Below, in pieces: positions 5,713-14,628 of a stretch of 20,079 nucleotides of DNA; position 1 is the first letter of the stretch, and each line of letters starts with the position of its first letter. A program made the translations under genes and the position numbers. Below the pieces are notes generated by a model. That model was not told where the DNA came from. It saw nothing but the letters and a program-made list of their open reading frames with translations, and did not search any database. This stretch comes from an archaeon. Its GTDB lineage: Archaea > SpSt-1190 > DYHY01. The stretch spans positions 1 to 20,079 of the forward strand of contig JAZDJS010000050.1 of NCBI GenBank assembly GCA_043803745.1. The letters run 5' to 3'.

Positions 5713-5787
5713 GGGCTCGTAGCTCAGCTTGGATAGAGCGACTGCCTTCTAAGCAGTAGGTCGTGGGTCCAAATCCCACCGGGCCCG
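5713..5787 (+). tRNA. tRNA-Arg (anticodon TCT), intronless, CCA not encoded
   Basis: Acceptor stem GGGCTCG/CGGGCCC plus discriminator G; D arm GCTC/GAGC with A20 (Arg identity element); anticodon arm ACTGC-CTTCTAA-GCAGT; T arm GTGGG-TCCAAAT-CCCAC. Confidence 0.96.
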
Positions 5788-5790
5788 CTC

Positions 5791-5953
5791 GAATTCGCCC
5801 GGAAAATACATCCGCGAATTCGAGGACCTCGCTACGCACTGCGTGCTGCTCGGCCGCAGAGGAATTCGCCCGGAAAATACATCCGCGAATTCGAGGACCT
5901 CGCTACGCACTGCGTGCTGCTCGGTCGCGTCGAAACCCCTTTTCCCTAAAAGC
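5791..5953. repeat. 71-bp-period tandem duplication (5791-5857 / 5862-5928) just after the tRNA, followed by a partial hairpin-element end (5931-5953)
   Basis: The copies differ at one base (CGGCCGC vs CGGTCGC). Each contains the hairpin GAATTCGC...GCGAATTC. GAAACCCC-TTTT-ccct-AAAA-GC follows. Confidence 0.9.
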
Positions 5954-6025: not shown

Positions 6026-9000
6026 TCACTGGACCTTCCCTATGTAAATCGCCTTCACAAAAGCCGCCGGAACGCTAAGGTATGCGTCCCTCGGATATAT
6101 GAAGACTGAAACCTCGTGCGGTCCGGTTCCCCTGTAGCTGATGTTGCTGAAGGAAATCGTCCTGTTGCCAGTCCATCCGCTCCCTTCCCTCCGAAGCTCT
6201 GAGAACGCAAGCCCCTTCGAAGCGTTCCCGAGGATGAAAAAGTCCAGCGGAACCGCCTTGCTTGAGTTCATCACAAGGGTGCAGTTGTTCCTGTCCGGGA
6301 TTGTGCAGTTCCCGCCGACAACCGAGACCGTGAAGCTCGTTGCAGCTACTTCAAGGGTCTTGACCTCTGACGCCCGGTCGCCGCAGACAGCCTGGATTGA
6401 ATGGTTCCCCGCAAAGGGCGGGTAGAAGGAAATCCCTCCGGACGAATTCGCCTTGAGCTCTATTCTTGAGCCGAGCTTGGCTGATGCGACGTAAACCGTC
6501 CCCAGGGAGCAGTTCGTGAAGCCGTAGAAACACTCGAAATACTGGGTGCAGTTTGCGGTCTGGTTCTCAGGGGTCGGAGTTGGCACGGGCGTCGGGGTCG
6601 GGATTGTGTGGGGTATTTCAATCGTGTAGTTCACCGAGGAAAAGTTCCCGTCGGGAGTCACGGCAGTTGCGTAATACTTGTGCGTTGTTCCGGCAACATA
6701 CAGTCCTACCGTTGCGGAATAGGGAGTCCCCGAATCCTCCCCGACCTTGAGTCCGTCAATGAAGAAGCCTATCTTGGTTACCGCGCCGGAATAATTGCTC
6801 ACGTTCGCGCCAAGGGACACGTTGAAATTGGCGGTTCCTCCGAGATTTATCGTCGACCAGTTGCCGGTGACAATGGGGATGCAGGACGAGTCGTTCGCGC
6901 AGTAGGTCACTGTCGTGAGTCCGCAGATTCCCTCCGTGCATGTCTTGTTGAAAGCCATCTTGAGCTTTGAGCAGGACGCCATCCCGCAGCCAAGCTTCAC
7001 GGGGGTCGCGGCAGTGCTGTTAATGCAGATTTCGGTGCAGTTCTCGCCGGGGCAAGTGAGGGCGACCGCCGAGAGGGCGGTGTAGTTCGTCCAGTTGACG
7101 AGGGTCGACCCGTTGAGGAAGGAGAAGTTGTATTTCCCCTCCTTCGCAACCGGGGCCCTCCATATCCAGTAGAAGGGCGCGACGGCGTCCTGGGTGAGGT
7201 TTGCTGTAACGGGAATTTCAGTAGTGTCGGCATGCTTCATTGTAAGCCGAGGGGTCTGGTAAGGCGTTGTTCCGGTGAGCTGGGTAACGTTGATTGTTGC
7301 TATGCAGCCGGTCGTAAGCTTTTTGTCGGGGGTCGCGGGCTTGACCGAGATGTTCACTGCCGGAAGATCCGTCAGGCAGTTCCAGGCACCCGTTGAGAGG
7401 GCGGTGTAGGTCGTCCAGTTGACGAGGGTCGACCCGTTGAGGAAGGAAAAGTGGTATGGTCCGTCGCTCGCAATCGTAAGGTTCCAGGTCCAGTAGAAGG
7501 GCGCGACGGCGTTCTGCGTGAAATTCTTCGTTACGGGAACGCCCGTTGTCCCGGCATATTTCACTACAAGGCTTTCGCTGCTGTATGCGACAGTGCCGGT
7601 GAGCTGGGTAACGTTGACAAGGACTTTGCAGCCTGTCTTGAGCTCCTTGTTCGGCGTTGCGGGCGTGACCGAAATGTTCACTGCCGGGAGCGCCGGAACA
7701 TCCACCGGGCAGGTTATCGCGACTGTCGATGATGCGGTGTATTGCGTCCAATTGATGATTGCGGTGCCGGACAGGAAGGAGAAGTTGTATGTCCCGTTGT
7801 TGGGAACCGAGACGTTCCAGGTCCAGTAGAAGGGCAGGGCGGCGTTCTGCGCGAGGGTCTTTACCGCGGGGATGTTTGTTGTAATCCCTTTGTCCGTGTT
7901 ATTCACGACAAGGTTCTCGTTCTGGTAAGCCGATGCGCCTGTTTTCTGGGTCACGTTCACCGTAACCTTGCAGCCTGTCTTGAGCCTCTTGTCAGTTGTC
8001 GAGGGCTTTACCGAAATCTCGATGGGGTTGCCCATTGATTTTTCCATGCAGATCGGGACGCCCCTCCAGCAGCAGGAATCGTCGCTGTGGCAGGGGAGGG
8101 AAGTCTCGACCCAGCCGTTCGCAACCTCCTGGTTCGATGCCTCGAGCGTCATGCATTTCCGTTCCTTGCCGTCCGCCGATTTGCAGAGAAGGAGCTGGTC
8201 AAGCGGCGCGTAGCAGAGCTCGTGGTTCGGGCAGCAGGTGTCCTCAAGGGTGCAGGGCTTGAACCAATCCTCGGAATAGAGCCTGTTATTGTCGTCCGGA
8301 TTGACATAATACATCCCCGTCTCGTCCCTGTGGGCGAGGGAAGTTTCCAGGTCAACGCAGATTCGCGTCACGGTTGCGTCGGATTCGCATCCCGCCGGAG
8401 TGTATTCGTCGCCCCCGCAATCCTCCCCTTCGCATTCCTCTTCGTCACCGTCGCCGTTGTCTCCATTGCCCCAGCCGTTCCCTCCGCCGTTGTCACCGGA
8501 AGCCTGGCAGTTCGGGTTCGTCCGTTCATAGCACTGGAGATCCGAGTTTCCGCACGCCGATAAACTTGGTTCTATTTCGCCGAAAGCGGCATTCGCGTCG
8601 AAAGGGTCTTTTTTGCAGCTGTCATCAAAATCGCCGGCTCCGGGTTCCGTTTCCGAGCAAATCCTTTCAACCCCGGCTCCGCTTTTGCAGGTTCCTTCCA
8701 TGCAGACGTAGTCTGCTGAGCATATTCCGGGAGATTCGACAACTAAATCATTATTTGTGAGCGTTCGATGAATTGGCGTTCCTGTGAGATGTGTTCCCGT
8801 GAGTAGAACGCAAGCCCAGTTTCCATCGGGAGATTTTCCGATTCCGCATTCGCTCTCCTGCTCAGCCCTGACTGAAGCGTCAACGCAATCCCCTTCGACA
8901 ATTGCTCCGGCACCGGTGACTGAATAGACGCAGGGGGACCAGGTTCCTGAAATAAGATTGTTCGGATAGCAGGTCTGGTCAGCTCCGGTACATGCTCCGG

Positions 9001-10423
9001 AAGGCACTGCGGTGCCTGGAGCAAGGCAGACTTTCAGTCCGCTTGGAAGGGGGGTGCAGATTCCAGTTCCCCTACACTGTACGGTAGGTGAGCAAGAGCC
9101 GCCCAATGCTCCGGGCGCGGCAGCATACGCAGCTCCGGTTGAACAGGTCGAAACGGTGCCCGTCACGCTCGTGCAATATGCTCCTGTTCCGAGAAGACCT
9201 TCTTCGCATTTTTCAACGTGTATCGTGCAGCCCGGACCAACCATACATGTTCCGGTAGCGCCCCCCGGCGCATCAATAGCGCCTCCGCTTACGCAGCAGG
9301 CGCAGTTATCTCCGCAACCGGGAGTAGTGTATTCTATTCCGTCACAGGCAACTGGAATGTTAGCAGGCCAGAACATCACAGTCCCTCCCCCGGAGGAAGG
9401 CATGCACATTGCGGTGTAATCGGGTGTTGGCGAGTTGGGTAGCTGCAACCAGCTGCAACCAGTTGGATAAGATGTGCAGGTGCAATAGCGGTTATTTCCT
9501 GTTGGCGGATTAAGGAAAACAGAAAGGCTGCCAGTTAAACTGCTCAATTCGTCAACACATCCGACAGGGCAGGTTGCCGGGATTGTGCCCTCGCATAGAT
9601 GATAAGTTGAGGGCGCACTGGAAGGACTCAACCATGAACACGCGCCCAAAGCCGCAGTGTCGCAAGCAACGCTGGCGGGACAGTAGCACATTGTGTTGGG
9701 AGGTTGACTGGCGGGGTCGCAACCAGAGCCGCCTGCAGTTAATCCGGTGCAGTCTTCTGGCGGAATGACACTGTAAAACTTACTACCCTCAGAGCGAGGC
9801 GCCGTGTCCCATCTACAGTCATTGTATTGATTGTTAGCACAGAAACAGTTGTAATAACCCCCTGAGGTGGGGCTTGGGCCATCACAGTAGCAAGAGGTCC
9901 TGGAGGCTCCGCAAAGTGCTCGAGAACTGCAAGAAGCCACTTCTGATATGTGACAAACTCCTACTGCTGTCGCATCCCATCCACAAGAAGCACCTGAGTC
10001 CTGAACATAGCACTTGCTGGACGAAGTTGGTTTGCAGCCTGCGCAAGGACAGGTTGTTCCGGAGCTTCCGCCAGAAACTGATGTGGTTGTAGTTGAACTA
10101 GTGGTTGCAGTTGAAGGGTTGCATTGCTTGCATTTAGAAAATGCAACTCCAAAGCACTCCCAACACCACGTAGATGATGAATCTGCCCAGCCGCAGACTG
10201 AATTTGAAGCGGAATTAGAAGGGCAAGGATTGCTGCTTCCATCAACGTTGCAGAAACAATTTTCGCCAGGGCCAAGTTCCCCAGCAGAACAGCCAGATAT
10301 ACTTTTTTCTTCGGAACACGACCAAGCGAGCCCTCTTTCCCCCCAGACCCCGACGAAAACAACCGCAAAAGCGAGCACAAAAACCAATCCAAGAACTAAA
10401 AGAACCCTTCTGTCGTTAGCCAT
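6026..10423 (-). CDS. Very large Cys-rich secreted/surface protein (about 1465 aa) with three ~108-aa internal repeats
   Basis: Start placed at ATG 10423 (MANDRR...), 27 nt below TTTATTTAAA at about 10450-10459. N-terminal signal/TM, dense Cys N-half, Gly/Asn/Asp/Glu linker, PTPTP linker and many N-x-S/T sequons. Confidence 0.88.
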   Translation of the reverse strand: MANDRRVLLVLGLVFVLAFAVVFVGVWGERGLAWSCSEEKSISGCSAGELGPGENCFCNVDGSSNPCPSNSASNSVCGWADSSSTWCWECFGVAFSKCKQCNPSTATTSSTTTTSVSGGSSGTTCPCAGCKPTSSSKCYVQDSGASCGWDATAVGVCHISEVASCSSRALCGASRTSCYCDGPSPTSGGYYNCFCANNQYNDCRWDTAPRSEGSKFYSVIPPEDCTGLTAGGSGCDPASQPPNTMCYCPASVACDTAALGACSWLSPSSAPSTYHLCEGTIPATCPVGCVDELSSLTGSLSVFLNPPTGNNRYCTCTSYPTGCSWLQLPNSPTPDYTAMCMPSSGGGTVMFWPANIPVACDGIEYTTPGCGDNCACCVSGGAIDAPGGATGTCMVGPGCTIHVEKCEEGLLGTGAYCTSVTGTVSTCSTGAAYAAAPGALGGSCSPTVQCRGTGICTPLPSGLKVCLAPGTAVPSGACTGADQTCYPNNLISGTWSPCVYSVTGAGAIVEGDCVDASVRAEQESECGIGKSPDGNWACVLLTGTHLTGTPIHRTLTNNDLVVESPGICSADYVCMEGTCKSGAGVERICSETEPGAGDFDDSCKKDPFDANAAFGEIEPSLSACGNSDLQCYERTNPNCQASGDNGGGNGWGNGDNGDGDEEECEGEDCGGDEYTPAGCESDATVTRICVDLETSLAHRDETGMYYVNPDDNNRLYSEDWFKPCTLEDTCCPNHELCYAPLDQLLLCKSADGKERKCMTLEASNQEVANGWVETSLPCHSDDSCCWRGVPICMEKSMGNPIEISVKPSTTDKRLKTGCKVTVNVTQKTGASAYQNENLVVNNTDKGITTNIPAVKTLAQNAALPFYWTWNVSVPNNGTYNFSFLSGTAIINWTQYTASSTVAITCPVDVPALPAVNISVTPATPNKELKTGCKVLVNVTQLTGTVAYSSESLVVKYAGTTGVPVTKNFTQNAVAPFYWTWNLTIASDGPYHFSFLNGSTLVNWTTYTALSTGAWNCLTDLPAVNISVKPATPDKKLTTGCIATINVTQLTGTTPYQTPRLTMKHADTTEIPVTANLTQDAVAPFYWIWRAPVAKEGKYNFSFLNGSTLVNWTNYTALSAVALTCPGENCTEICINSTAATPVKLGCGMASCSKLKMAFNKTCTEGICGLTTVTYCANDSSCIPIVTGNWSTINLGGTANFNVSLGANVSNYSGAVTKIGFFIDGLKVGEDSGTPYSATVGLYVAGTTHKYYATAVTPDGNFSSVNYTIEIPHTIPTPTPVPTPTPENQTANCTQYFECFYGFTNCSLGTVYVASAKLGSRIELKANSSGGISFYPPFAGNHSIQAVCGDRASEVKTLEVAATSFTVSVVGGNCTIPDRNNCTLVMNSSKAVPLDFFILGNASKGLAFSELRREGSGWTGNRTISFSNISYRGTGPHEVSVFIYPRDAYLSVPAAFVKAIYIGKVQ
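7049..8023 (-). repeat. Three tandem intragenic ~324-bp (108-aa) domain repeats
   Basis: Units begin (I/V)xISVxPxTxxKxLxTGC at 8023, 7681 and 7357 and share PFYWxW, YxFSFL and NWTxYTA. Nucleotides 7082-7123 and 7406-7447 are nearly identical. Confidence 0.9.
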
Positions 10424-10567
10424 CCTAAGGGATTTTACCACTGAACTAGTTTAAATAAATTTAGCCGGGGCTTCTACCGAGCCTTCCGCGACTTCTGGCG
10501 CTTGGTTAATCGTCGCTGCGGCATGAGAAAATGCCGGAAAAGGGATTCTTTCAGCCCCTTGGAAAAT

Positions 10568-10774
10568 CTGACGGCTTCTTTTCCCTTGAACTGTCCTCTG
10601 AGGAGGAGGGTCCTGTCACATCCATTCGACCTTGCGCCTGATGGCTCCAGATCTCACATGCGTTCGACTTGCTTAAAGCCTGCTGCTAACTGCTTCTTTT
10701 TCCCGTGAACGGCTTTTTCTTTGCAAGAAAAAGGGGTTCCTTCACATGCGTTCGACAACGGGAATCCCGAGGAA
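10568..10774. repeat. Stack of three extra copies of the argS 3' end (10616-10630 degenerate, 10654-10668, 10742-10774) interleaved with two hairpin elements (about 10568-10615 and 10688-10741)
   Basis: TCACATGCGTTCGAC, the reverse complement of the argS stop region, is read directly at these positions (13/15, 15/15 and 32/33 identity to the sequence starting at 11768). Confidence 0.88.
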
Positions 10775-10778
10775 GGGC

Positions 10779-11285
10779 TTAGGACTTGAAAAGGACGGGC
10801 TTCCTGGAAAAGCCAATCTTCCAAGATTTGAAGAACTCCAACAACGGACTATCGCCCGAGGAAGGAACGCTGACTGCTCCGCTCCCAAGGCGGGTCCCGC
10901 CCAAGCGGAAAAGCAGACCTTCCCCGGAAGACCTTCCGAAAAGTGCGTGGGAAAACCTGCTTTTTCCTGTCCCCTCAAGTCCCTTCAAGTCATATGTGTA
11001 GACGACCGAGGGATGAAAGCCGAATTCCGAGGAGAACGCCCTGCCGTTCGGAAGGAATCCTTCGGAAAGCGCGGTCCGGAACAGCGAACTTTTGAAAATT
11101 CCGGAGACTTCCAACCTCACAACATGGAAATTCTTCGCAAGCTTCGGAAGCACGACCGCGTCGGTCTCAACAAGCACAAGAACGTCGACGTCTCTTGGCG
11201 CGCGCTTTCCCCGGACATATGAGCCGAACAATATCGCTTTCAGCACGCCCTTGGCGCGCTCAAGCTTTCTTAATTCCGGGAACAC
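10779..11285 (-). CDS. Minimal nucleotidyltransferase (MNT/MntA-like antitoxin) with an extra C-terminal domain
   Basis: ILFGSYVRG...RDVDVLV matches the GS...DxD pol-beta motif. GTG start with SD GGAGGTAG (11295-11302); overlaps the end of the HEPN gene. Confidence 0.88.
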   Translation of the reverse strand: MFPELRKLERAKGVLKAILFGSYVRGKRAPRDVDVLVLVETDAVVLPKLAKNFHVVRLEVSGIFKSSLFRTALSEGFLPNGRAFSSEFGFHPSVVYTYDLKGLEGTGKSRFSHALFGRSSGEGLLFRLGGTRLGSGAVSVPSSGDSPLLEFFKSWKIGFSRKPVLFKS

Positions 11286-11610
11286 GTTCGGAAACTACCT
11301 CCTCAACGGCGTTCTTGACCTTTTCAGCTTCAGCCCGCTTCAGCCGGAGGTTGTAGCTTCTCCGGTAGACCGAGAACACCTGCTTCATCAGGGAAACCAG
11401 CTCCTTGTCGATCAGTTCAAGGTAGGAAAAGCGCTCCTTGTGGTCCTTCGGGAGAATCTTGTATTTTTCGTATACCAAAAGCGTCCCTACCGTTGCAAGC
11501 GCCTTGAAATAAAGGGTCGCGGAACTGTTACAGTTCCCTCTCTTGAACTCCGACCTTGCCCCGGAAAGGAACTCGTTCAGGTTTTCCAGGAGCTCGGTTC
11601 TTTCATCCAT
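11260..11610 (-). CDS. HEPN domain protein (putative toxin of a HEPN-MNT module)
   Basis: 116 aa, predicted helical; the A..EFKRG...SATLYFKAL, PKDH and YRRSY pattern resembles archaeal HEPN proteins; paired with an MNT gene. Confidence 0.78.
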   Translation of the reverse strand: MDERTELLENLNEFLSGARSEFKRGNCNSSATLYFKALATVGTLLVYEKYKILPKDHKERFSYLELIDKELVSLMKQVFSVYRRSYNLRLKRAEAEKVKNAVEEVVSERVPGIKKA

Positions 11611-11662
11611 GTAAACTGTTTACAAATAAGCTATTAATAAAGCTTTCTGTAAACCGTTTACA
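11610..11662 (-). promoter_or_regulatory. TA promoter: TATA box (TTTATTAATA) flanked by two 15-bp palindromes TGTAAAC-N-GTTTACA
   Basis: Palindromes at 11610-11624 (touching the ATG) and 11648-11662, with identical arms. Confidence 0.8.
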
Positions 11663-11666
11663 TATT

Positions 11667-11767
11667 GGCTTTTCCCGTGAAAGACGGCCGGAGCTTTCGC
11701 AGAGCAGGTGGGTTCCTTTCGCGCTTTCCGTGAACGCTTTTTTTCCTGCAGGAAAAAAAGGGTTCTG
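11667..11767. repeat. Two adjacent hairpin elements immediately downstream of the argS stop
   Basis: CCGTGAAAGAC...GGGTTCC (about 11667-11716) and CCGTGAACGC-TTTTTTTCC-tgca-GGAAAAAAA-GGGTTCTG (about 11721-11767). Confidence 0.75.
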
Positions 11768-13663
11768 TCACATGCGTTCGACAACGGGAATCCCTAGGAA
11801 TGTCAGGCTTGAGCGGAGGGCGAAATAGGCAGCCCGGACAAGAGCGAGCCGCCTCTCCTCATGCTCGGACCCGAGGACCCGGCAGGTCGTGTAGAACTTG
11901 GAAAGTATTGTCGCAAGCTGGAAGGCATATTCGGAAATCCGGGAAATCTCGGTCCGGGTCCCCCAGACCTCCTTTCTCAGGCTTCCGGCAATCCTGACTA
12001 TTTCAGCCGGGAGGAACGCAATCTGCTTCGCCAGAAGATATTCATCCTCCTCAATTCCGGATATGTCGGAGATTTCCGCATTTCCGCCGGCCTTTTCCCG
12101 GCCGGCCTTTTCCAATATCCGGAGGCATCTTGCGAGGGCATACTGGAGATAGGGCGCGCTGTCCCCGTCGAAGGAAAGGGCGTCCTCCCAGCGGAAGGTT
12201 ATCTTCTTCTCCGGCGCGAATTTCAGGAGGGTGTACCTTACCGCGCCGACTCCGACAGCCTCGGCAATCCTTTTCTTCTCCTCCTCGGGGAGGGCCTGGT
12301 TCTTTTTCTCGACTTCCGCGCGCGCTCGCTCGACAGCCTCGTCAAGGACCTCGTCAACCGAAAACCCGACCCAGGTCCCCTTCCTGCCGGAGAATTTCCC
12401 CTCGGGAAGCCAGACGTGCTCGTAGGAAAGGTGGAAGCTCCTTGCCTCTTCAGAGGCAAAGCCGATTTTCCCGAGGATGGAATATACGATCCTCTGGGGG
12501 TGCGCCTGCTCGGCTCCGATGACGTTTATCACAATCTCGTATTTCGGCAGGGAGACCTCGTCTCCCGAGAGGGCGGATTTGCGGACCATCTGCCCATTCG
12601 GCTGCTTTTCGAAATCGGAGAACCTGAACGGGTTCTCGAAAAGACCGAACTTCCACATCTGGAAAGCCACGTCCTTCGCAGCATATGTCGCTGTCCCGTC
12701 GCTCCTGACAAGGACGACGTCGGTATCCTCAAGGTTTTCGAATCCGGGGAAGCCGGAAACGTCGCAGATTATGCATCCGGCCTTTTCGCCGGAATCGGCG
12801 CGCTTGACAACCCCTGTCGCGAGCATTTTCTCGAGGGCCTTGGAGAAAAGCCCCGCGGAGATTATCTCGGACTCGTAAATCTGGAGGTCGTGGAAAATCC
12901 CGAACCGGTATGCGGTCGCATACTGGGCGCGGACGCAGTTTTCGGCGATTTCCCGCGCGCCCGATGCAGCCGGCTCGACCCCCTTTTCCATGTCATGCAT
13001 TATCGCACGGACTGCCGCCTCGACCTCCGGATTCTTCCCGGTTTCGGCCTCGACATCAACGTAAAGGAGCCCGAGATTCTGGTCGAATTTCGGATGCAGC
13101 TTCTCCGCGCCAGGACGGTTCTTAACCCCCCAGTAGACCTTCGCAACCTGGAGCCCGAGGTTGTCGATATAGTCCATCTTGGTCACCAGGTATCCTGCGC
13201 CGGAAAGCACCCGGGAAAGCGTGTCCCCGAGAACCGCGTTCCGCGCATGCCCGATGTGCCAGGGCTTGTTCGGGTTCACCGAGGGGAATTCGACAAGAAC
13301 GCTTTTCCCGGAAAATGCGCGCGATTTGCCGTAATTCTCGCCGGCGGAAACCGCTTCGGAAACCGCGCGGGAAAGGAGCTCGCTCTTTTTGGAGAAGAAA
13401 TTCAGGTAGCCGCCCTTGTTCTCGACCCGCTCAATCAGGGGGAATTCCGGAAGCCTGATCGAGGCAATCAGGTCCTCCGCTATTCTGAAGGGCGCCCGCC
13501 TCTTCTCGCGCGCAAGCTCGAACGCAACGGAAGAACTGAGGTCGGCTCCGTCCGAAGCATCCTTCTGCGGGATCGCGAGCTTTTCCTTCGAAACGCCGAG
13601 CGCGGCGGAAACCTGCGAAACGAACTCGTCCCAGACGGGAATTTTATCAGCCATTTCAATCAT
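11768..13663 (-). CDS. argS: Arginine--tRNA ligase
   Basis: SVNPNKPWHIGHARN (HIGH motif), RSDGTATYAAKD, KFSGRKG, FDGDSAPYLQYA and C-terminal LGIPVVERM. Start is ATG 13663 or 13654; TATA-like TATAATAA at about 13691-13698. Confidence 0.97.
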   Translation of the reverse strand: MIEMADKIPVWDEFVSQVSAALGVSKEKLAIPQKDASDGADLSSSVAFELAREKRRAPFRIAEDLIASIRLPEFPLIERVENKGGYLNFFSKKSELLSRAVSEAVSAGENYGKSRAFSGKSVLVEFPSVNPNKPWHIGHARNAVLGDTLSRVLSGAGYLVTKMDYIDNLGLQVAKVYWGVKNRPGAEKLHPKFDQNLGLLYVDVEAETGKNPEVEAAVRAIMHDMEKGVEPAASGAREIAENCVRAQYATAYRFGIFHDLQIYESEIISAGLFSKALEKMLATGVVKRADSGEKAGCIICDVSGFPGFENLEDTDVVLVRSDGTATYAAKDVAFQMWKFGLFENPFRFSDFEKQPNGQMVRKSALSGDEVSLPKYEIVINVIGAEQAHPQRIVYSILGKIGFASEEARSFHLSYEHVWLPEGKFSGRKGTWVGFSVDEVLDEAVERARAEVEKKNQALPEEEKKRIAEAVGVGAVRYTLLKFAPEKKITFRWEDALSFDGDSAPYLQYALARCLRILEKAGREKAGGNAEISDISGIEEDEYLLAKQIAFLPAEIVRIAGSLRKEVWGTRTEISRISEYAFQLATILSKFYTTCRVLGSEHEERRLALVRAAYFALRSSLTFLGIPVVERM

Positions 13664-13716
13664 CGCCAACCTGAAATCCGGAAAGCTTGCTTATTATACT
13701 TTTGAAGAACTATTCG

Positions 13717-13951: not shown

Positions 13952-14533
13952 ATGGGAAGAACGCTCGGCGTTTCCGAAACTCTCGCACTCGCCGAGAAGC
14001 ACGGGCTTGCCGTTGCAAGAATCTTTTCGGCGGATACGGCGGAATTCCCGGTTTTCGTCAAGCCGGACATCTCGGGGCACAAGAGCGACAGGGGGCTGGT
14101 TTTCCTTGCGAACGACAAAGGGGAGCTTGCCGAAGCAGTCGGGAAAATCTCCCCGGACTCGAATCCGATAATACAGGAAAGGCTTTCCGGGACCGAACTC
14201 ATTCTCGGGGCGAAGAAGGACCCGGTATTCGGAACGGTCGCCCTTGCGGGGATAGGGGGGACCCTTGCGGAGGCATATTCCGACGCAGCGGTTGGCGTAA
14301 CGCCCCTTTCCGAAGAGGATGCGCTAAGGATGATTGACTCGCTGAAGGGGCAGAAAATACTCTCGGGATTCAGGGGGAAACCGGCAGTTGACAGGGCTGC
14401 CCTCGCCCGCGCAATAGTCCTTGTGGGGAAAATGGCTGATGCGGAAGGACTTGCCGAGCTCGACCTCAATCCGGTTATTGCGGACGGGGAGAGGATTGTT
14501 GCTGTCGATGGGCGCGCGGTTGTTTGTGATTGA
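13952..14533 (+). CDS. Acetate--CoA ligase (ADP-forming) family ATP-grasp subunit, stand-alone beta-like
   Basis: FPVFVK, HKSDRGLV, ELILGAKKDPVFG, LSGFRGKPAVD and ELDLNPV...AVDGR motifs of the ACD ATP-grasp domain. Confidence 0.88.
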   Translation: MGRTLGVSETLALAEKHGLAVARIFSADTAEFPVFVKPDISGHKSDRGLVFLANDKGELAEAVGKISPDSNPIIQERLSGTELILGAKKDPVFGTVALAGIGGTLAEAYSDAAVGVTPLSEEDALRMIDSLKGQKILSGFRGKPAVDRAALARAIVLVGKMADAEGLAELDLNPVIADGERIVAVDGRAVVCD

Positions 14534-14628
14534 ATAGGCAACCTGCTTCTTTTTGACCGTAAACGACTTTTTCTAGCGAGAAAAAGGGGTTTGTCGATGG
14601 GCGCGCGGTTGTTTGTGATTGAATAGGC
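14503..14628. repeat. Perfect 37-bp direct repeat (14503-14539 / 14592-14628) of the ACD gene 3' end flanking a single 52-bp hairpin element (14540-14591)
   Basis: TGTCGATGGGCGCGCGGTTGTTTGTGATTGAATAGGC occurs twice; the insert reads AACCTGCTTCTTTTTGA-CCGTAAACGAC-TTTTTCT-agcg-AGAAAAA-GGGGTT. Confidence 0.93.

Follow-up and report, generated by a model that had tools for sequence, protein, structure and literature searches.

A HEPN/MNT-type gene pair between two copies of the argS gene end in a small archaeon, with similar bracketing of homologous cassettes

Introduction

Toxin–antitoxin (TA) and restriction-modification units are called mobile, but how they do so without a transposase or integrase is a long-standing question. 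A single route has been described, from restriction-modification cases in bacteria and with no known mechanism: insertion with long target duplication, reported by Nobusato et al. (2000) and extended by Furuta, Abe and Kobayashi (2010; PMC2853133). In the passages of the latter survey drawn on here, the repeats are 45–420 bp long, mobility genes are lacking, some repeats overlap gene 3′ ends, the mechanism is given as unknown, and no archaeal case passed the screen. We analysed contig JAZDJS010000050.1 of assembly GCA_043803745.1, from an archaeal genome bin of 1.23 Mb (51 contigs, 90% complete); the window is this entire 20-kb contig (20,079 nt). In it, a gene pair for a HEPN-fold protein and an MNT-type nucleotidyltransferase lies between two copies of the 3′ end of argS, the arginyl-tRNA synthetase gene. 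An earlier reading of the same letters (the original prediction) had proposed that the pair is an inserted cassette free of any recombinase. Our own reading, to which we give slightly better than an even chance, is that this 1026-nt unit is an addiction-type cassette of horizontal origin, which recombination anchored on the gene end would have brought in from a diverged relative. It would then be an archaeal TA counterpart to the restriction-modification insertions.

The locus is like the restriction-modification insertions, as that survey's passages present them, in that a small addiction-type unit lies between target-derived direct repeats longer than 30 bp (here 33 nt at 32/33, or 64/76), with no transposase or integrase in or next to the insert and with repeats that vary by site. 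Unlike them, the cargo is of HEPN/MNT type, the hosts are small archaea, and the repeat nearly always includes a stop codon. Also unlike them, the copies differ as diverged alleles do, which points to carried homology, and no high-identity empty site was found for the insert.

Several other kinds of element bear comparison. Integrase-less cis-mobilisable elements are known in streptococci. Integron cassettes, archaeal ones included, are small, often have TA cargo and form arrays separated by a recurring site, and casposons are defined by a Cas1 casposase, terminal inverted repeats and a 14–15-bp target duplication. Archaeal integrative elements that sit in the 3′-distal parts of tRNA and protein genes carry integrases or casposases, according to the portion of PMC6563490 used here.

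Results

Two copies of the argS end flank a two-gene cassette

The features of the locus are listed below from argS downstream, with the basis of each assignment in brackets.

11768..13669, minus strand: argS (arginyl-tRNA synthetase, 633 aa), the target gene (Pfam tRNA-synt_1d 4e-32, DALR_1 4e-20, Arg_tRNA_synt_N 1e-10)
11768..11800, minus strand: repeat copy 1, the last 10 argS codons and stop, functional copy, Leu codon CTA (repeat search, codon comparison)
11725..11767, minus strand: trailer A, a 3-nt spacer, a near-perfect hairpin (arms 11732–11748 and 11749–11765) and a short CACGG-type box (fold −15.1 kcal/mol, z −3.3)
11663..11724, minus strand: spacer of about 60 nt with a second trailer-like box at 11668–11682 and no gene-end copy (repeat family D4)
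11610..11662, minus strand: candidate cassette promoter region, 15-nt palindromes at 11648–11662 and 11610–11624 around an A/T-rich TATA-like box at about 11632–11642 (sequence reading)
11260..11610, minus strand: HEPN-fold gene, 116 aa, putative toxin partner (AlphaFold2 [AF2] model and fold matches)
10779..11285, minus strand: MNT-type nucleotidyltransferase gene, 168 aa (Pfam NTP_transf_2, invariant residues, AF2)
10775..10778, minus strand: 4-nt spacer from the MNT stop to repeat copy 2 (sequence reading)
10742..10774, minus strand: repeat copy 2, an orphan argS end, Leu codon CTC, peptide and stop unchanged (repeat search, codon comparison)
10700..10741, minus strand: trailer B, after 3 nt a hairpin (arms 10707–10721 and 10725–10739) and box; stem sequence different from trailer A, architecture equal (fold −10.8 kcal/mol)
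10654..10668, minus strand: argS-end copy 3, 15/15, encoding VERM-stop (repeat search)
10577..10630, minus strand: argS-end copy 4 (10616–10630, 13/15) with a degenerate hairpin and box (repeat search, folding)
6026..10441, minus strand: gene for a Cys-rich surface protein of 1471 aa, downstream context with its own promoter ahead of the gene (open reading frame [ORF], homologue in genome G003)

The 33-nt copies at 10742–10774 and 11768–11800 matched at 32 of 33 positions, lay 1026 nt apart and both encoded FLGIPVVERM-stop in frame; the sole difference was a synonymous Leu codon, CTA in argS and CTC in the distal copy. Sequence reading and the repeat search thus confirmed the 33-bp repeats of the original prediction, and the same was true of its hairpin after each copy in argS sense (−15.1 and −10.8 kcal/mol) and of the MNT stop 4 nt from the distal repeat (spacer 10775–10778). 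Two partial argS-end copies beyond that account were also present, at 10654–10668 and 10616–10630.

Similarity ran on past the 33 nt. A local alignment across gene end, hairpin and short box gave 64/76 identities and a score of 43.5, against 9.1 ± 0.9 in shuffles, and none of 600 random windows of matching geometry from the same genome reached 18.5. The terminal 15-mer of argS occurred exactly three times in the 1.23-Mb genome, each time at the argS locus. Over the 76-nt alignment, the orphan copy differed at 1 of 33 positions in its coding part and at 11 in the remainder, and both hairpins folded. The three hairpins that follow argS-end copies all still paired, each with a different stem. Hairpins of this family stand behind many tRNA and protein genes of the genome (about 20 genomic repeats). 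They make better sense as a lineage-specific trailer of genes that falls within the duplicated or homologous stretch than as the vehicle. Rfam, sigma-70 and terminator scans of the region returned nothing useful.

The insert consists of two genes only, with the HEPN gene first and an overlap of 26 nt between them. The second promoter palindrome (11610–11624) reaches the ATG of the HEPN gene, and similar palindrome pairs occur upstream of homologous cassettes. In sequence, the region resembles an autoregulated, leaderless archaeal promoter and may function as one. The window also encodes an archaeal-type phosphoenolpyruvate carboxylase.

Bracketing repeats at homologous cassettes

Homologous cassettes were screened for bracketing repeats by comparing the 450 nt upstream of the pair with 490 nt spanning and following its end, with z scores taken against shuffles. 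Twenty-nine loci were taken, one of which had too little flank, leaving 28 tested. A bracketing direct repeat was found in nine of the 28 (z 7.5 to 37 over shuffles, repeat length 26–76 nt, spacing 970 to 1370 nt); none of the 600 random windows used as a control had one. The bracketed loci were the argS locus itself, L024, L026, L028, L031, L032, L035 (47/47 identical), L049 (61/68) and L054 (26/26), and they came from several archaeal genomes and metagenomes, in independent assemblies. Three pairs of non-bracketed loci (L036/L040, L047/L048 and L038/L052) gave identical numbers and are probably one sequence sampled twice in each case, which would make the proportion 9/25.

Eight of the nine bracketed loci had a repeat that included a flanking ORF's 3′ end or was derived from one, and this ORF could point either way relative to the cassette; in the ninth, L024, the repeat overlapped a gene start. 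The repeat sequence was different at each locus. We saw no common terminal motif among the bracketed loci, and the hairpin of the argS genome was seen at none of the other eight.

Codon differences between repeat copies

Codons of the two copies were compared one at a time from the stop backwards, under a rule that ends at three consecutive amino-acid mismatches and trims them. Synonymous and non-synonymous differences numbered 1 and 0 at argS, 5 and 1 at L031 (including a switch between the two serine codon families), 2 and 2 at L049, 9 and 4 at L026, and 6 and 4 at L028; two further cargo-bearing pairs of the argS genome, C12 and C2 (below), gave 3 and 0, and 0 and 1. The differing cargo-bearing pairs thus totalled 26 synonymous and 12 non-synonymous differences, as raw counts under a rule whose trimming favours synonymous ones. 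Random single-base changes to a codon leave the amino acid unchanged in about one case in four. No pair had its stop out of register, and in three pairs the two copies used different stop codons.

One synonymous difference at argS alone proves nothing, and the inference rests on the multi-locus pattern. With synonymous changes in the majority (26:12) and the stop never out of register, the orphan copy resembles an allele of a diverged lineage. The original prediction had suggested, from the single Leu codon, that the incoming DNA brought its own gene-end copy, and the mostly synonymous differences and in-register stops at the other loci back that suggestion.

The gene pair in related genomes and the argS site

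The cassette pair had no paralogue in its own genome. With the MNT-like protein as query, matches were found in nine of the 17 genomes of the phylum and not in the two closest, G001 and G003. A search with alignment A3 added relatives in three Nanoarchaeota/Woesearchaeota bins and on 15 metagenome contigs; viral contigs scanned with the same alignment yielded no relative. Of 31 loci examined, 29 had a HEPN-like gene immediately upstream of the MNT-like one. The HEPN-like and MNT-like genes thus form a conserved, accessory module.

In the 90% complete bin we found no tyrosine recombinase (PF00589), serine recombinase (PF00239), Cas1, reverse transcriptase (RT), TnpB or Y1 transposase. Across the phylum, a tyrosine recombinase was found in four of 17 genomes; of the five genomes with a bracketed cassette, one had such an enzyme. 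Every one of these genomes is an incomplete bin. The proposal of an inserted, recombinase-free two-gene cassette is therefore upheld by the lack of a paralogue, the absence of the pair from the two closest genomes and the failure to find any of these six recombinase and transposase families.

In G003, a gap of about 92 nt separates argS from a homologue of the surface-protein gene (29% identity, E 1e-7), and no cassette lies between the two. ArgS of G003 is 67% identical and the DNA is not alignable, so this is an empty site at family level only; neither genomes nor metagenome contigs yielded anything closer. G001, of the same genus, also has an orphan argS end: at locus L002, 71 nt past the real end, 27 nt recur exactly, with two synonymous changes in the codons just before. 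The argS end is thus a site that has been used repeatedly. The 27-nt argS end, searched for as an exact string in metagenome contigs, had 0 matches. As a separate observation, in the last 360 nt of L002 in G001 a 45-nt stretch with a TATA-like box occurs twice, on either side of a hairpin-and-box element, and the contig breaks off within this repeat.

The two cassette proteins

The 168-aa protein has the G-S...D-x-D signature of MNT-type nucleotidyltransferases, with G21, S22, D32 and D34 invariant across 13 sequences. It passed Pfam NTP_transf_2 narrowly (23.7 bits, cut-off 21) and scored below the cut-off of NCBIfam MntA_antitoxin (16.4 bits, cut-off 60). Its AF2 model (predicted local distance difference test [pLDDT] 90.3) has an MNT-like N-terminal domain and a ferredoxin-like C-terminal domain. 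The N-terminal fold matched Hailong HalB and the MntA/MNT chains 7bxo_E and 8xeh_E (Z 7.0), all more weakly than E 0.001. The C-terminal half had no match in the domain libraries; its order is beta-alpha-beta-beta-alpha-beta, and many ferredoxin-like folds matched it at Z 6–8. Cas2 homology was considered for this domain and set aside: the Foldseek E value was about 0.05, the Z of 6.8 was tied with those of unrelated ferredoxin-like folds (Z 6–8), and we claim the fold alone. A profile of the MNT-like family, at E ≤ 0.001, matched 1258 proteins; with E ≤ 1e-30 the number was 148 (representative clusters). Most matches ran over the full length. The MNT-like proteins are thus a real, sizeable two-domain family that domain libraries cover in part.

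The 116-aa protein had no Pfam, NCBIfam or PADLOC match. Its AF2 model (pLDDT 93.4) is a helical bundle, and its best Foldseek matches were HEPN proteins, led by AF_0298 (2hsb; template modelling score [TM] 0.81, prob 1.0, E 2.5e-2) and followed by SsR10, the sacsin HEPN domain and ST0689 (2q00, 3o10 and 1wol among the entries); none reached E ≤ 0.001. H57, R60, F61, Y82 and Y86 are invariant. In HepT/MntA, Rx4-6H is the RNase motif of the HEPN partner. This canonical motif is absent from the 116-aa protein, whose single His (H57) has no Arg 4–6 residues before it.

The pair is like the type VII HepT/MntA system (as described in the parts of PMC7641770 and PMC11586414 used here) in being an overlapping two-gene operon with a G-S...D-x-D MNT and a HEPN-fold partner. 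It is unlike HepT/MntA in that the HEPN protein is without Rx4-6H and without a Pfam or NCBIfam match, the MNT protein scores below the MntA cut-off and has the extra ferredoxin-like domain, and the HEPN gene comes first. "HEPN-MNT" is thus the right name for the modelled fold and the architecture, and the catalytic motif of the characterised HepT/MntA is lacking. By analogy with those systems, the pair may act as toxin and antitoxin, and we treat these roles as putative.

Other duplicated gene ends and their cargo

The same genome holds other genes between copies of a gene end. At C33:8334-9548 (L055), a second, non-homologous pair of a HEPN-type gene (148 aa) and a winged helix-turn-helix (wHTH)-MNT gene (185 aa; NTP_transf_2 1e-7) is enclosed by perfect 66-nt copies (66/66) of the 3′ end of the gene upstream. 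Here the MNT stop directly adjoins the distal copy, and no hairpin was found at this cassette. At C12:9529-10365, 61 nt from the end of a PAC2-family gene are present on both sides of an HD-domain gene, and the last three codons of these copies, including the stop, differ synonymously only. C2:900-4024 has a gene for a Cys-rich surface protein of 912 aa between 63-nt copies, and C45:3494-5070 a Fic/DOC gene between repeats of about 100 nt. In the wHTH-MNT family, bracketing repeats were found in two of nine loci, one of them in the G015 array described below. A search for other cargo with the same boundaries had been proposed as a check of the original prediction, and the C33, C12, C2 and C45 inserts and the wHTH-MNT relatives supply such cargo.

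A stacked arrangement occurs in genome G015 (C24, ~6815-9918; L066 and L032), where the end of a 187-aa gene is present three times with the stop in register in each copy. Copies 1 and 2 enclose a wHTH-MNT cassette; copies 2 and 3 enclose a HEPN-like/MNT-like one of the argS type.

Shorter duplications are also present. At least five protein genes of the argS genome have a second copy of their end 86–130 nt away with a hairpin between. One of the five is an ATP-grasp gene in the window (13952..14533), whose last 29 nt and 8 nt past its stop are duplicated exactly (37 nt, window 14503–14628), enclosing a 52-nt hairpin-and-box element in opposite orientation. Acquisition of cassettes at gene ends would account for some of the many odd gene-end duplications in this genome.

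We further observed, at the start of the contig (window 1–340), a tandem repeat with a 111-nt unit that contains a hairpin-and-box element (101 nt exact) and, just after tRNA-Arg (5713–5788), a 63-nt repeat spaced by 71 nt (5791–5924). A split or permuted tRNA reading of the tRNA-linked repeats was left aside, as it cannot explain the protein-gene cases. On contig C15, hairpin elements at C15:39403-39436 and 84378–84404 are inverted relative to each other, 45 kb apart, with a similar 45-nt stretch outward of each. The sole DDE transposase gene of the genome (C15:86409-86936) is 2 kb beyond one of them; as a candidate mover of the hairpin it was rejected, because its ends were checked and none resembled the hairpin.

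Several pairs of contig ends (for example C39/C44, C29/C39, C26/C51 and C25/C46) overlap by exactly 141 nt. This is probably the word size of the assembler, and the contigs could be joined further.

Discussion

A possible route into the argS end

If the cassette was acquired from a diverged relative, the donor would have had it already behind argS, and the incoming DNA would have carried its own version of the gene end. Entry exactly at the argS end would have used homology to the argS 3′ end and its hairpin trailer, either by a single crossover with a circular molecule or by one homologous end and one illegitimate join. Either route would keep argS whole and place another copy of its end beyond the cassette. 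The cassette would not have to bring a recombinase, as host recombination or an enzyme acting in trans could serve. Once in place, the cassette could be retained since loss of a TA-like pair would be costly, and repeated events at one gene end may give rows of orphan ends, such as copies 2, 3 and 4 behind argS, and arrays. The recombination route, and with it the circular intermediate, we infer.

A number of observations weigh against this account. Nineteen of the 28 tested loci are without a bracketing repeat, and no empty site, alternative cargo of high identity or circle junction was found, so insertion at argS is deduced from anatomy and distant relatives. The bin is 90% complete and a recombinase gene may lie in its unassembled part. 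The HEPN-fold protein, without the canonical RNase motif, is a putative toxin at most, and the trimming in the codon walk tilts the counts towards synonymous differences. The perfect repeats at L035 and C33 fit fresh target duplication as well as they fit transfer from a near-identical strain. About 20 short hairpin-containing inserts in the same genome are bracketed by 15–40-nt copies of different targets; these look more like duplication made by insertion than like carried homology, and circles of 80–190 nt are physically unlikely.

Insertion-made duplication as a rival reading

In a rival account, a break that left long staggered ends, or a template switch during repair or replication at the gene end, would have captured the cassette and duplicated 33–76 nt of the recipient, as has been suggested for restriction-modification units, with the copies diverging afterwards or the structure later spreading by homologous recombination that mixed alleles. 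The identical repeats at L035 (47/47) and C33 (66/66) are what such an event leaves, and the many short inserts between duplications of different targets fit it better than they fit acquisition from a diverged relative. There is also published precedent in the restriction-modification insertions, which in the passages drawn on here have 45–420-bp repeats and no mobility genes (PMC2853133). Neutral decay of a copy made in this way predicts mostly non-synonymous changes and loss of the stop, whereas we observed 26:12 with the stop in register; a freshly made duplicate should not look like this, even given the trimming. In the argS orphan, moreover, conservation is higher in the coding part than in the non-coding sequence next to it. 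The synonymous pattern could also result from later spread by homologous recombination, and insertion-made duplication combined with such spread is a serious rival, if one that we hold doubtful.

A remnant of an integrative element as an alternative

The cassette could instead be the cis-mobilisable remnant of a site-specific integrative element, with the repeats as attL and attR and the integrase encoded elsewhere, in another element, a virus or the symbiont's host cell. Archaeal elements do use the 3′-distal parts of protein genes (14 of 68 thaumarchaeal elements, in the portion of PMC6563490 used here). Like them, the argS locus has repeats that rebuild the target gene end, with the original end displaced to the far side, and tandem accumulation; accretion at one site is typical of such elements and may be compared with the row of orphan argS ends and with the G015 array. 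The incompleteness of the bin also leaves room for an integrase gene. Those elements, as far as the same portion describes them, are at least several kb long, with a tyrosine integrase or casposase and a fixed attachment sequence, unlike the 1-kb unit here, for which no integrase was found and whose sequence of attachment varies by locus. There was no integrase in the cassette, none was found in the genome or in four of the five genomes with bracketed cassettes, each homologous cassette had a different repeat without a common core, and no relative was seen on the viral contigs scanned. We regard a remnant of this kind as unlikely.

Two classes of self-contained element were rejected. A casposon does not fit, since no Cas1 and no terminal inverted repeats were found and the 15-nt copies are parts of longer gene-end copies. 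An insertion sequence or miniature inverted-repeat transposable element does not fit either: the sole inverted repeat is a complete hairpin at one end, and the duplications are long and variable in length. A target-primed reverse-transcription model for the variable long duplications was likewise set aside, as we found no RT and no A-rich tails.

The proposed role of the hairpin as carrier

The original prediction had gone further and taken the hairpin for a small mobile element able to carry genes, with the HEPN-MNT pair as its cargo. The genome does hold about 20 hairpins of this family, most of them between duplications of their target, and the cassette begins with such a hairpin. Against this, the hairpin is complete before the cargo begins, leaving the cargo outside it; the same bracketing occurs without this hairpin at C33 and at all eight other bracketed loci of the family; and the three argS-end hairpins differ in their stems like diverged alleles of one trailer. 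With the same duplication found elsewhere in its absence, and the hairpin itself behind many tRNA and protein genes, this part of the prediction did not stand, and we consider a gene-carrying hairpin quite improbable. Although the genome is a metagenome bin in which tandem duplications of gene ends and hairpins exist, a misassembly of strain variants or an old, unrelated gene-end duplication that later received the cassette is very improbable, because the 141-nt overlaps suggest an assembler word size far above the repeats (≤76 nt), which should not have confused assembly, because the same layout recurs in independent assemblies, and because the synonymous bias argues against an old in-situ duplicate.

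Implications

Outside subscription journals and supplements, we found no description of TA cassettes with long target duplication, or with duplicated gene ends in archaea. This work adds an archaeal HEPN/MNT-type cassette family that repeatedly shows the signature of long target duplication, and its insertions have a fixed position, right where a gene ends. A further clue is that the two copies behave like alleles of different lineages, which makes the choice between carried homology and insertion-made duplication testable. The cassettes also offer experimental material: a 1-kb unit, sites of 33–66 nt and cases with perfect repeats.

Cassettes acquired at gene ends also invite comparison with integrons. 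The cassettes here are like integron cassettes in their stacked arrays (G015) and, at argS, in having a hairpin next to the cassette. They are unlike integrons in that no IntI-type integrase was found, the recurring site is a host gene end and not attC, the cassette has its own promoter-like region, and the hairpin is 5′ of the genes and without integron core sites.

A broader idea, which we think possible without expecting it to be right, is that small DPANN-type archaea have a recombinase-independent cassette system in which the last 30–80 bases of a gene and its trailer serve as a portable attachment site. Units of about 1 kb, addiction modules as well as other single genes, would move between related genomes, integrate by host recombination and build up arrays behind the gene. 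If this is true, the portable gene end would be an integron-like platform without an integrase, and it would give a general answer to how TA and restriction-modification units move without mobility genes.

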